Positions 23,807 through 39,523 of a stretch of DNA of 64,000 bases are shown one piece after another. The position numbers were made by a program, and so were the translations under genes. Below the pieces are notes generated by a model that was given only the letters and a program-made list of their open reading frames with translations, did no database searches and was not told the origin of the DNA. The stretch covers positions 41,256 to 105,255 of the IMG/VR virus record IMGVR_UViG_3300030330_006019; one strand, written 5' to 3'. The first letter of the stretch is position 1. The number at the start of each line of letters is the position of its first letter. Origin of the DNA: a virus. Its lineage: Duplodnaviria; Caudoviricetes.

Positions 23807-23850
23807 ATAGTATAATATAACTAATTTTTTTGATATATAAAAATTATTTG

Positions 23851-23925
23851 GGTGGTAAATGAGAATCGAACTCACAACCTTTGGAACCACAATCCAGTGC
23901 TCTAACCTATTGAGCTATTACCACC
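23851..23925 (-). tRNA. tRNA-His (GUG)
   Basis: G-1 plus acceptor stem GTGGTAA/TTACCAC with C73, D arm GCTC/GAGC, anticodon loop TTGTGGT, T arm GTGAG-TTCGATT-CTCAT; full CCA not encoded. Confidence 0.93.
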
Positions 23926-35627: not shown

Positions 35628-36989
35628 TCAACTTTTGTTATCTTTATCAAGTTCTTTGTACTTATTTTTTAACATTTTTCTCAAGTATTCATTATGATTA
35701 TTCATGTCCTTTTGAGTCTCTTGTCCTTGCACAGAATTAGACTCATATATTTGCATTTGGCCGTTTGACATATTTGCTTTACTTGGAAAAGTAATTCCAT
35801 CTGGTCCAAACCTATTTTTTATAACATGCCATCTTCCTGTGCCTGCCAACTTATCCTCTATTTTTCTACTTAATGAAACAACAAAATCTGCTGTCATTAT
35901 TTTTGCATATGATTCTGCAATCTTTTCTGCTCCAATAACATCTTCTTCTAAAGCAGAACGATTTGCTTGAGATGCGGTCCAAACCGGAATTTCATGTTCA
36001 CCAGCCAATCCTCTAAGGTCTTCATAAATGTTGCCTAGCATATGTCGTACTTCACGGCCTCCACTTATGTCTCTTAATAAATCAGCATAGTCAACTATTA
36101 CTAAATCCGGCTTAAACCCTTGCACCCTACACTTTTCAATATGTGCACCAATTGTTGATACTGAAGCAGACTTTGTTGGGTATTGTTTTATTATCAAATC
36201 ACCTTTCATATTTCCAACTGTCTTTTTAACTTCTTCAATATTGTACTTCAAATCTTGTGCTGATATTCCAGTAAATACACTATCATATCTTAAACCTACA
36301 TATGCCTCATTTAATTCCAATGTATAGTGTATAACATTTAACCCAGCCTTTGCAGCATTTGCACCAACATTAACCAATGCCCATGACTTACCAATACCTG
36401 CAGGTGCAACAAATACTCCTAATTCACCTTTCCCTAAACCACCATCAGCTATATCATCTATAACATCCCAGCCAGTTGTTATTGTGTTTCTTACAGATTC
36501 TGAATATCTTTCATCAATTTCATCTTTATATTCATGACCTACATCCTTCTCTACACCAGCTTTCATAGCTGCATCAACGGTTGATTTTATTCCATCAAAA
36601 TCATTTAGTTTCAACAATTCAACGGATTCCATAATTGCAGACTTAATACATTGGTTTTTACAAAAATCAAGTGTTTGTTGTTTTACAAAATCCAAATCTG
36701 AAGATTCTAAATTTCTATATGCATCCTTTAATGTATCAACTACAGTTTGAGTTAGTAGTTCACTTTCTATTTCTGCAACCTTGACCTTCATTACTTCTAA
36801 TGTTGGTGGAGATTTATACTCATTAAAATAGTTTTGTATTTCCTTTATGATAAAAAAGTTTGCTTCATTTTCAAACATTTTAGGGTCAAGAATGTCATTG
36901 ATTTGTTGAAGGAAAGCCTTATCTGTAAACAGTGCGGCTATCAATTTTATTTGAAATAAATTTCCGTAATCTGCTAGTCTACTTGTCAT
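35628..36989 (-). CDS. replicative DNA helicase (T4 gp41/DnaB-like)
   Basis: APAGIGKS, TLEL, IVDYAD, TASQANR, KNRFG. Confidence 0.93.
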   Translation of the reverse strand: MTSRLADYGNLFQIKLIAALFTDKAFLQQINDILDPKMFENEANFFIIKEIQNYFNEYKSPPTLEVMKVKVAEIESELLTQTVVDTLKDAYRNLESSDLDFVKQQTLDFCKNQCIKSAIMESVELLKLNDFDGIKSTVDAAMKAGVEKDVGHEYKDEIDERYSESVRNTITTGWDVIDDIADGGLGKGELGVFVAPAGIGKSWALVNVGANAAKAGLNVIHYTLELNEAYVGLRYDSVFTGISAQDLKYNIEEVKKTVGNMKGDLIIKQYPTKSASVSTIGAHIEKCRVQGFKPDLVIVDYADLLRDISGGREVRHMLGNIYEDLRGLAGEHEIPVWTASQANRSALEEDVIGAEKIAESYAKIMTADFVVSLSRKIEDKLAGTGRWHVIKNRFGPDGITFPSKANMSNGQMQIYESNSVQGQETQKDMNNHNEYLRKMLKNKYKELDKDNKS

Positions 36990-38028
36990 ATGTCATTCCT
37001 GCATAAGAGTCTAATGGTAAAAATACTTGTTTTAACCATAAGTCTGGGTTTTTAATTGAGCCATTTATTTTATCTTCTAATACCATTTTTTGGAATTCAT
37101 ATTTAACCAATCTCTGTATTGGTGACCTAACTGTGTCCATTATTTTTGTCTTTGCTGAACCAGATATATCAACTTCATTTAGCTGCATTAATTTATAATT
37201 CATATCTAACAATTCCTTAGACTCGGATATTGTTTTTAGTATTTTATACTTTGAGTTTTTTTCTGTAAAGTCAATTATTTCATCAATAGTTATTGTTCTA
37301 TCTTCAGTTATTATAGGTATTCTATTTGCAATTGTTTTTCTGCCTGCACCTCGTATTCCAGGTATATTATCTGATGCATCTCCTTCAATTGTCCTATATA
37401 GTAAAAAGTTATGTGATGGTATACCATACTCTTCCATTATAGTTTCCTTAAAATAAAATTTCTTTTTTGTTGGCGACCATATATGAACCTTATCAGATAC
37501 AAGTTGAAGAAAATCCCTATCTGTTGACATAATAAATTTTTGACTATTCGGATATACTTGTTGAGAAATATACGCCATACTATCATCTGCTTCAATATTT
37601 TCTACACTTAAAACTGTAAGTGGTAATTGTTGCATGTATTGTGCACAACGCATTAATTGTTGTTTCATAGACAATGATTCATCTTCCAATGTATTGTGAT
37701 TACCATGTCTTGTTAGTCTTGACCTAACTCTACGATTTGCTTTATAATCTGGAAATATTTTTCTTCTTCTTTGGCTGCCACCTTTTCCATCAAAGCAAAC
37801 AATAACTCGAGTTGGTTTAATATTTTTAATTGCATAGCCAATAGACATTAATGTACCAGTTATTCCACCAACATGTATACCATCATCATTTGTTACTGGG
37901 TTTGCTGCAAAGGCTCTGATAAATGTGTTTAGTCCATCAACTATTAGTATCCTATCATTAGGATTTGAAGGGTTGTCTTTGTTTTCCTCCAATGTTTCTA
38001 GTATTGAAAAGTATCTGTTTTTTGACAT
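36979..38028 (-). CDS. 5'-3' exonuclease / RNase H (flap endonuclease)
   Basis: IVDGLN, FDG, YKANR, EADD, STDRDFLQ, GDASDNIPG. Confidence 0.93.
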   Translation of the reverse strand: MSKNRYFSILETLEENKDNPSNPNDRILIVDGLNTFIRAFAANPVTNDDGIHVGGITGTLMSIGYAIKNIKPTRVIVCFDGKGGSQRRRKIFPDYKANRRVRSRLTRHGNHNTLEDESLSMKQQLMRCAQYMQQLPLTVLSVENIEADDSMAYISQQVYPNSQKFIMSTDRDFLQLVSDKVHIWSPTKKKFYFKETIMEEYGIPSHNFLLYRTIEGDASDNIPGIRGAGRKTIANRIPIITEDRTITIDEIIDFTEKNSKYKILKTISESKELLDMNYKLMQLNEVDISGSAKTKIMDTVRSPIQRLVKYEFQKMVLEDKINGSIKNPDLWLKQVFLPLDSYAGMTYDK

Positions 38029-38092
38029 ATGCTATTATCTTTTATTTATTATAATATAACTAAAATATTTGGGATAAAAAAATATTTTTGGT

Positions 38093-38385
38093 AAAAAAAG
38101 CCCCTTCATTGTGAAACAAATCCAGGGCTTCCAAGCTGATATAGTATATGTTTATAGTATCTCCAACAGTGACGATTAGAGAACAATTGGTATCAGCCAC
38201 ATATACCTTAATCATTAATTTTCTTTGGGGTCACTTGGCCAAAGATAAATCACTTGTTAACAACATTGGTCGGTTAAATAAATCATTCTATAAGTGCGGA
38301 TTTTTAACCTTAACATCCTACGCCACGAGAAGGCTGTTGTTGTGTAGGACGAAGTAAAAGGTGGGGTTAACCACCAATTACTTAT
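38093..38385 (-). ncRNA. candidate structured non-coding RNA
   Basis: Largest intergenic gap in a densely packed genome; contains many stems, pseudoknots and a terminal hairpin with a U-tract (see findings). Confidence 0.6.
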
Positions 38386-38395
38386 TCATAACCTA

Positions 38396-39523
38396 TTATC
38401 CTTCTGGTACTGGTTCACTGCTGATTTCAACATCATCAATTCCAAAATTATCAATCTTGTAATTCATAATAATTGTATCTGCAATTTTATCATAAATCTC
38501 TGTTCTTAGTTCTTCATTGTTTTCCAATAATGAATTCCAATCTTTTGACATAAATTTATGGTCCTTTCCAGTTGCGTCTGTATATGTGTACCAACTACCA
38601 CCTTGTTTTACAAGTTTGTAATCTTTTAGAACATGTAACCATCCACCAAAATCATCAATGCCACTTTCAAAATAAATTTCAAATTGTGACTTTCTTAATG
38701 GTGGTCCCATTCTATTTTTTACAACTTGTGCAACAGTTTTAATACCCATAACTTGTTCTTGACCATCAACTCTTGCTTTGATTTGTCCCATTGGTTTAAG
38801 CCTTAGTCTACAACTGGAATGGAAAGCTACTGCCTTACCTCCAGATGTAGTCCAAGGATCACCAAACATAACCCCCATCTTTTGTCTAAGTTGGTTTGTA
38901 AATACAAGACAAATTCTCTGTCTTCCTATCATTTGAGTAATCTTACGCATAGCCTTTGATAAAATAATTGCTTTACTGGTTGCCCAGCCATCCTTTCCAT
39001 AATCAGCTTCACTTTCAACTTTGGTTGTTGAACCAGCCAATGAATCTACAACTATAGTAACAAGCCTATCCTTATCACTTTCTCTAACTTTAGTTATGAT
39101 GTTTTCCATAACCTCAAAAATTTCCTCAACAGTTTCCAATTGAATATATAACATGTTTCCAACGTCGATTCCAATTGCCGTAGCAAATTCCTCATTCATT
39201 GCATTTTCTGTATCAATGTAAACTGCAAGTCCACCTTGTTTTTGTGTATTTGCAAGTAGGTGAGCAGCCATAAGACTTTTTCCACTACCTTCAAGACCAG
39301 TTATTTCAGTAATTCTACCAACTGGTATTCCACCATTTTTTCTGTTAGAGATTGCAAGGTCTAGCATAGATGACCCAGTACTAATCCACTCTGTCAAGTC
39401 AGTTGGTGTTTCTTCAGTACCGTCAAGAAAGTAAGCAACTTTATAGTCCTTAAATTTCTTATTAAGACTATCTGCTAACAAATTTGCTAAATCATCTCTC
39501 TTTGTAGTTACTTTCTTTGCCAT
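38396..39523 (-). CDS. recA: RecA/UvsX recombinase
   Basis: ISTGS..LD, GRITEI.GLEGSGKS, IDTE, VVDS, NQLR, TTSGG.A..F, KNRMGPP. Confidence 0.95.
   Translation of the reverse strand: MAKKVTTKRDDLANLLADSLNKKFKDYKVAYFLDGTEETPTDLTEWISTGSSMLDLAISNRKNGGIPVGRITEITGLEGSGKSLMAAHLLANTQKQGGLAVYIDTENAMNEEFATAIGIDVGNMLYIQLETVEEIFEVMENIITKVRESDKDRLVTIVVDSLAGSTTKVESEADYGKDGWATSKAIILSKAMRKITQMIGRQRICLVFTNQLRQKMGVMFGDPWTTSGGKAVAFHSSCRLRLKPMGQIKARVDGQEQVMGIKTVAQVVKNRMGPPLRKSQFEIYFESGIDDFGGWLHVLKDYKLVKQGGSWYTYTDATGKDHKFMSKDWNSLLENNEELRTEIYDKIADTIIMNYKIDNFGIDDVEISSEPVPEG

Follow-up and report, generated by a model that had tools for sequence, protein, structure and literature searches.

A predicted HDV-like ribozyme and a second conserved structured RNA in the gap after recA of an uncultured large marine phage

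The gap that follows recA in the phage genome analysed here consists of three separate elements, namely, an HDV-like ribozyme, a second conserved folded RNA, termed AB, and a terminator, rather than of one RNA of 290 bases. All coordinates refer to the window, the whole 64,000-nucleotide stretch of DNA that was analysed, in which positions 38093-38385 of the minus strand had been flagged, from the letters alone, as a single multi-pseudoknot RNA. We regard it as probable that the gap comprises a series of independent RNA modules closing the SSB-recA transcription unit, and that its HDV-like ribozyme, as predicted, cuts its own transcript. The ribozyme belongs to a class that is known already, phage members included; what appears to be new is a marine group of it that bears the helix P4. 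AB is an uncatalogued structured RNA.

The gap between recA and the exonuclease gene

The window comes from an IMG/VR virus record of 105 kb with an estimated completeness of 42%. Judged by RecA, the closest isolate is Microcystis phage Mel-JY01 (54% amino-acid identity). Beyond the two flanking genes listed in Table 1, the flagged stretch has a gp32-like SSB gene upstream, and genes for a DnaB-like helicase and a ribonucleotide reductase downstream. A nucleotide search of the recA-exonuclease gap against isolate phages gave matches only within the coding DNA of recA and of the exonuclease gene. A RecA search of viral contigs provided 80 recA loci of 72-98% identity. The order from recA to the exonuclease gene is retained in these relatives, whereas the length of the gap varies between 17 nt and about 410 nt; at some loci it measures merely 17-34 nt, and where extra genes have been inserted it reaches about 2 kb.

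Table 1. Features of the recA-exonuclease gap and its surroundings (window coordinates).
Feature	Position	Strand	Basis or remarks
RecA gene	38396-39523		flanks the flagged stretch (minus strand) on its 5' side
recA 3' hairpin, AAGUAA-GGUGG...CCACC-UUACUU	38352-38383	minus	sequence and folding; terminator-like; its end is 1 nt upstream of the cleavage site
Predicted self-cleavage site, between C38351 and G38350 (G1)	38350-38351	minus	G1 invariance, G1·U, RNA contig ends
HDV-like self-cleaving ribozyme (predicted), 92 nt	38259-38350	minus	covariance model R1, 88.9 bits, E 8e-18; covariation
P1, GUCCUAC with GUAGGAU	38344-38350 with 38315-38321	minus	7 pairs, 100% paired, 4 compensatory
P2 (pseudoknot), AACAACA with UGUUGUU	38335-38341 with 38259-38265	minus	window sequence and relatives
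P3, GCC/GGC, and 7-nt L3, UUCUCGU	38322-38334	minus	pairs 38334-38332 with 38324-38322, 100% paired
P1.1	C38329-G38314	minus	one C-G pair, invariant in 37/37
P4 hairpin	38272-38309	minus	outer 7 bp, 2-nt bulge, inner 4 bp, 14-nt loop L4; 38309-38299 with 38284-38272
J4/2, CCAA	38266-38269	minus	C38269, candidate catalytic cytosine
AB, second structured RNA	38135-38255	minus	about 120 nt in the window; covariance model R2, 109.6 bits
Hairpin A, loop CCAAGUGACC	38222-38245	minus	7/7 stem pairs with compensatory changes
Helix X, GUAUAUGU (38199-38206) with ACAUAUAC (38144-38151)	38144-38206	minus	4/6 pairs compensatory; encloses junction and hairpin B
Invariant junction GGCUGAUACCAA	38187-38198	minus	alignments A2 and A3
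Hairpin B, loop UCGUCACUG	38160-38182	minus	38168-38173 in this loop pair with 38230-38235 of loop A
Intrinsic terminator, AAGCCCU...GGGGCUU then U7	38093-38130	minus	sequence and folding
Promoter-like motif AAAAAUAUUUUUUUAUCCCAAAUAUUUUAGUUAUAUUAUA	38049-38089	minus	precedes the exonuclease gene; outside the RNA
5'-3' exonuclease gene	36979-38028		flanks the flagged stretch (minus strand) on its 3' side

Using nhmmer, just two sub-segments of the window's gap were found to recur among the relatives, one of about 95 nt (38361-38265), which holds most of the ribozyme, and a 44-nt core of AB (38198-38155). This core lies downstream of the 95-nt segment in the window, but upstream of it in loci L046 and L047. 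Covariance models detect the ribozyme in 19 and AB, its divergent members included, in 25 of the 80 recA loci; five loci have both, and the order may be either. Because they are found separately and in either order, the ribozyme and AB are independent modules.

These observations bear directly on the idea that the whole of 38093-38385 is one undescribed multi-pseudoknot RNA, which we now consider very improbable. It is true that the parts are co-transcribed, since an environmental RNA contig covering 38121-38350 spans both ribozyme and AB, and that the region folds somewhat better than chance: the 311-nt stretch on the minus strand has a minimum free energy of -76.5 kcal/mol, with z = -2.5 against 100 shuffles (z = -1.9 for the plus strand), a modest excess. 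In relatives, however, the parts occur alone, in reverse order, or with a tRNA between them, and the 5' part fits a known class. Furthermore, the two pairings that were thought to tie the parts together are not conserved: relatives lack the 3' arm of TGTTAA/TTAACA, and CACTT/AAGTG is present only in the window and in L001, a relative with 96% nucleotide identity.

The suggestion that the region is non-coding holds, as its 51-aa ORF is not conserved. That the stretch encodes a small protein, from this ORF (38060-38215, minus strand) or from one of 69 aa (38148-38357, plus strand), both open in the window, appears to us next to impossible: the 51-aa frame is shortened to 36 aa in L001, there is no equivalent frame in L002, L003, L005 and L046, and substitutions preserve base pairs, not codons. 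A search confirmed that the gap lacks tRNA and tmRNA, as the sequence-only reading had stated; the sole tRNA of the window, a tRNA-His(GUG) gene on the minus strand (23850-23924), has no adjoining ribozyme. At gathering thresholds, Rfam matches nothing anywhere in the recA-exonuclease gap.

At the two ends of the gap, the hairpin AAGTAA-GGTGG/CCACC-TTACTT and the stem AAGCCC/GGGCTT with its U-tract are present in sequence and fold as originally drawn. The latter is an intrinsic terminator, and relatives have different terminator hairpins at the corresponding place. The motif AAAAAUAUUUUUUUAUCCCAAAUAUUUUAGUUAUAUUAUA may represent a phage-specific promoter; it is conserved in L001, L002 and L003, and L033 and L041 have it in a looser form.

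Fold, conservation and context of the HDV-like ribozyme

The 95-nt segment of the relatives was enlarged by a pattern scan of viral contigs, giving an alignment of 37 distinct ribozyme sequences. A nested double pseudoknot accounts for this alignment: its pairs are formed in 97.1% of the pair cells, whereas sliding the partners by 1-3 columns lowers the share to 35-46%, and none of 500 shuffles matched the observed pairing scores. Compensatory changes are found in 13 of the 28 pairs (four in P1, three in P2, one in P3 and five in P4), and all five helices follow the strand order of the delta family, P1-P2-P3-P3'-P1'-(P1.1)-P4-P4'-P2'. Much of this had been drawn correctly before: TCCTAC/GTAGGA is P1, its inner GCC/GGC is P3, and GGTTAAA-AATC/GATT-TTTAACC is P4, all three supported by sequence, fold and covariation in relatives. 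What had been taken for a bulge, ACAACAACA, turned out to be the missing helix, as its ACAACAA pairs with TTGTTGT (38265-38259) to form the pseudoknot P2.

The conserved positions are as follows. First, G1 is invariant, and faces U in 35 sequences and C in the other two, at the start of a 7-bp P1. Second, four bases of L3 (U, C, C and G, the last being G38326) are invariant, together with the C-G pair of P1.1. Third, C38269 and A38266 are invariant, with C38269 followed by Y-A-A; by analogy with the HDV family, C38269 would be the catalytic cytosine, and its placement directly after P4 assumes that this helix has two basal U-A/U·G pairs. As for the helices, the base of P3 covaries from A-U to G-C, and P4 is 99% paired over 11 pairs capped by a 14-nt loop. 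P2 is exchanged as a whole, from AACAACA/UGUUGUU in the window to AAAAGGC/GCCUUUU in most relatives and ACGGC/GCCGU in L003, so that its support comes from three lineages (window/L001, L003 and the remainder), most P2 pairs being otherwise invariant. In L4 (38285-38300), the loop of P4, the 5' half reads UCCUCACU, with UCCGCACU in the window, and is conserved family-wide; the L4 of HDV-like ribozymes is normally variable.

In a permissive Rfam search (E up to 10), the only ribozyme family returned was RF02682 (HDV-F-prausnitzii), which scores 18.2 bits at 38303-38350 in the window, below its threshold of 44 bits. The same threshold is missed in L033 and L046, at 25.1 bits (E 0.006-0.012), and the alignment in relatives spans P1, J1/2, P3 and L3. 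Sub-threshold scores are to be expected, because the model cannot score pseudoknots and because P4 differs. Each defining feature of HDV-like ribozymes that can be looked for in a sequence is present here. Thus, the guess that the element was possibly a ribozyme proved apt for its 5' third, which by its sequence fits the HDV-like self-cleaving class, whereas the statement that no known ribozyme signature was present did not hold, given this topology. Likewise, its description as an undescribed RNA stands for AB only; the 5' third belongs to a known class, and the remainder is made up of a second, independent module and a terminator. The expectation that a structured RNA would be conserved in related phages was borne out by the covariation of both modules.

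With the covariance model built from the ribozyme alignment, a single copy was found in the window and no further one there or across the 105-kb record; each of five related large records also has a single copy. The closest relative, a 170-kb record, contains at L185:1501-1572 (minus strand) a degenerate look-alike of 24.7 bits, with a mismatched P1, without the L3 G and without P4, which is probably either a copy that has decayed or a match by chance. In cellular genomes the core pattern of the ribozyme gave a single match, at L186:4208-4315 on the minus strand of a Bacillota MAG (JAEEHF010000033.1). Its P1, GUCCUUU/AAAGGAU with G1·U, and its L3, UUCACGU, give it the looks of another HDV-like ribozyme (30 bits with R1).

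The ribozyme is invariably intergenic and in the same sense as its neighbouring genes, and the gene that precedes it is either recA or a 65-aa DUF4494 gene. In the latter context (L061:4946-5143, L085:2686-2883 and about 15 further loci) it begins 8-11 nt past the DUF4494 gene, which itself lies inside an insertion of about 2 kb that separates recA from the exonuclease gene. A tRNA-Ala(UGC) or tRNA-Gln(UUG) gene is found about 4 nt past the 3' end of the ribozyme at L029:1919-1993, L046:3250-3323, L092 and L116. Just ahead of G1, 23 of the 37 sequences have a hairpin that ends 0-3 nt before it, these hairpins being mutually unrelated, and in five further sequences the closing helix of AB takes this position.

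The AB module

AB was analysed with two alignments, A2, of 15 sequences in three subtypes, and A3, of 27 sequences fitted to the covariance model. Covariation supports hairpin A, helix X and hairpin B: the share of paired cells is 87% in the MAFFT alignment (40-49% with slid partners), where 15 of the 29 pairs show compensatory changes, and 85.7% in the model-fitted alignment of 27 sequences (38-49% with slid partners). The sequence GCUGAUACCAA is identical across all 15 sequences of A2, and the junction is GCUGAWACCAA in 25 of the 27 sequences of A3 and GCUGACACCAA in the other two. Hairpins A and B had both been recognized beforehand, as TCTTTGG/CCAAAGA (38222-38245) and TCTCTAA/TTGGAGA (38160-38182), as had the helix GTATATGT/ACATATAC, which is also seen in sequence, fold and covariation.

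The kissing loop AGTGAC/GTCACT, put forward as a possibility from the window, is supported as well. The RNAalifold consensus includes the loop-loop helix, which covaries, one of its pairs being A-U in nine sequences and G-C in six. A contiguous loop-loop duplex of 6-8 bp can form in 18 of the 27 AB sequences, through four different sequence pairs (AGUGAC/GUCACU, GGUGAC/GUCACC, GAUGGC/GUCAUC and UAUAGC/GCUAUA). In subtype T3, GGAGC faces GCGCC in the loops, and the complementarity is interrupted. A divergent subtype, found directly after recA (L008, L009, L014, L016-L019, L021, L045 and L049), has AAUGGAGCC as loop A and GAGAGCGCCUUA as loop B, which are not contiguously complementary; in it the kiss may have been altered or replaced. 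The H-type pseudoknot that had been proposed in this region survives in part. Its pairing of GUAUAUGU with ACAUAUAC covaries, but GCTGATA/TATCAGC is not general: although possible in the window, L001, L003 and T1, it competes with the covarying nested helix, and in other subtypes the 3' segment forms such a nested pairing with a 5' segment. The 3' segment of AB in the window can adopt two alternative pairings.

Loop-loop kisses hold two arms parallel in purine riboswitches and in extended hammerheads. AB resembles these in having two hairpins, a loop-loop helix, here of 6-8 bp, and a junction with invariant bases; it differs from them in the order of its helices. A hammerhead reading of AB was rejected, since CUGAUACCAA is without G8-A9 and the core bases G8 and G12 are missing; the CUGAUA...GAAA region is an internal loop, not a three-way junction, because helix X closes both of its sides, and Rfam returns no hammerhead match to AB even at E up to 10. 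A hairpin-ribozyme reading was ruled out by the core bases and the order of helices. At that same permissive level, with the window and two other AB subtypes as queries, only chance matches to snoRNA, miRNA, PyrR and BjrC68 families were obtained for AB, and no Rfam model fits its junction sequences, GCUGAUACCAA and CUAGAAA. The pattern GCTGATACCAA...GTCAC was discarded as an AB detector, its 66 matches in viral contigs being mostly chance ones in coding DNA, and stricter pattern scans, including a two-gap pattern of viral contigs, did not find AB beyond recA contexts.

What AB does may be considered in two ways. It could be a cis-acting leader, that is, a riboswitch or attenuator that governs read-through from recA into the exonuclease and helicase genes, with the ribozyme only an insulator. 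The complex junction with invariant bases would suit such a role, and so would the terminator that follows AB in the window, in L001 and L002 and in the T1 lineage, with the two alternative pairings of the 3' segment in the window serving as a switch. We nevertheless find this improbable, as AB in L046, L047 and their relatives is followed by ribozyme and tRNA, and not by a terminator; the exonuclease gene has a conserved promoter-like motif of its own; and Rfam gives no riboswitch match. AB is 5' of the cut site in some relatives, but on its 3' side in this phage, so that it need not stay attached to recA. It is tempting to speculate, although we hold this only tentatively and with less than even confidence, that AB represents a new class of functional RNA confined to a clade of large marine phages, of about 120-150 nt with a GCUGAUACCAA/CUAGAAA junction, which in this phage the ribozyme releases as a discrete, stable 5'-OH RNA. 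If this is correct, the ribozyme would provide a non-coding RNA, or in relatives a tRNA precursor, with its 5' end, and AB itself would be ligand-binding, protein-binding or catalytic.

RNA ends, proposed processing and relation to known ribozymes

Environmental RNA was available as assembled contigs from four marine metatranscriptome runs, corresponding to three samples of one study. Contigs with 99-100% identity to the window cover 38121-38350 (run X1), 38194-38350 (twice) and 38196-38350, so that all four terminate exactly at 38350, the base predicted independently as G1. Beyond it each contig has 2-3 unmatched letters, which could be non-templated additions at a true RNA end. As these are contigs and not raw reads, strand and end chemistry are not readable from them, and assembly breaks can also create contig ends. 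Same-strain RNA contigs over recA or the exonuclease gene were not seen, an absence that in contigs proves nothing. Overall, the data fit a discrete and relatively abundant RNA that runs from the cleavage site through ribozyme and AB towards the terminator, the kind of RNA that the sequence-only reading had proposed to look for in metatranscriptomes.

The four ends at G1 are compatible with cleavage, although contigs do not distinguish a 5'-OH or a 2',3'-cyclic phosphate. The fold could also be real yet non-catalytic in vivo, acting as a stabilizing 5' structure or a protein-binding element, with the end at 38350 produced by transcription initiation or by a host RNase. That contigs cannot separate 5'-OH from 5'-PPP leaves room for this, and in L099 and L108 a TATAAT-like box does lie just upstream of G1. 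We judge it unlikely all the same, since the conserved bases are those that a catalytic core needs (G1·U, the C and G of L3, P1.1 and the C of J4/2), and since the sequence before G1 is unrelated among relatives and is usually a hairpin, not a promoter; in the window, the minus strand has no sigma-70-like promoter ending near 38350.

With a self-cleaving ribozyme, the processing of the transcript may be pictured as follows. SSB-recA transcription would pass the recA hairpin into the ribozyme, which would fold and cut 5' of G38350, that is, between C38351 and G38350. By analogy with HDV-family ribozymes and with bacterial RNA decay, the recA message would be left with a 2',3'-cyclic phosphate, ending 1 nt past a stable hairpin, and this should slow 3' exonucleases. 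The downstream product would be a 5'-OH RNA of about 258 nt, comprising ribozyme, AB and the intrinsic terminator, whose 5'-OH at a compact pseudoknot should allow it to evade 5'-end-dependent decay. In relatives, this downstream product would carry a tRNA or nothing in place of AB.

HDV-like ribozymes with P4 include RF02682 of F. prausnitzii, CPEB3 and an Ackermannviridae phage ribozyme whose structure has been solved (PMC13635239). The marine sequences share with them the strand order, a 7-bp P1 that starts at G1·U, a 3-bp P3, and a J4/2 that begins with cytosine followed by NAA; their 7-nt L3, UUCNCGU, resembles the RF02682 consensus ACCUCUaCGUGGu. They differ in their P1.1 of a single pair, in their sub-threshold Rfam score, in a long, A/U-rich P4 whose loop has a conserved 5' half (UCCUCAC), and in the status of their activity, which is predicted. 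They also differ in their setting, in uncultured large marine phages, after recA or DUF4494 and often directly before a tRNA or another non-coding RNA.

Theta ribozymes are minimal HDV-like ribozymes of gut Caudoviricetes, without P4, known mainly from gut phages and cleaving immediately next to a tRNA 3' end (Kienbeck et al., 2024, PMC10879173). The study that described them did search marine viromes, with a motif limited to minimal forms (PMC10879173). Like theta ribozymes, the group described here consists of HDV-like ribozymes of tailed phages that are intergenic, in sense and in part linked to tRNAs. In contrast with them, it has a covarying P4 of 11 pairs with a 14-nt loop, and its cleavage site in the window is not within 5 nt of a tRNA 3' end, as the gap has no tRNA. 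In those relatives that do have one, the tRNA is 3' of the ribozyme, and cleavage would therefore trim its 5' leader side and not its 3' trailer, so that the ribozyme-tRNA precursor is the mirror image of the theta arrangement. Hammerhead and twister ribozymes also occur between the genes of phages, where the cutting of polycistronic messages is their presumed task (PMC3088659). The element after recA, as a small RNA with predicted self-cleavage between the genes of an operon, is like these, but its class and fold differ, and Rfam searches gave no hammerhead or twister match in the gap. We found no paper on a marine, P4-bearing, HDV-like group.

This case shows that Rfam thresholds overlook pseudoknotted ribozymes of the HDV class. 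With an environmental RNA end at the predicted cut, the role of the ribozyme in the processing of a phage operon becomes directly testable, and AB may prove to be a new RNA of regulatory or catalytic function. Among phages, HDV-like ribozymes have so far been known mainly in the minimal theta form, which trails tRNAs in gut viruses. A P4-bearing marine subfamily would widen both the range and the role of the class, because its members are sited where the recA message ends and before tRNAs or a structured RNA.
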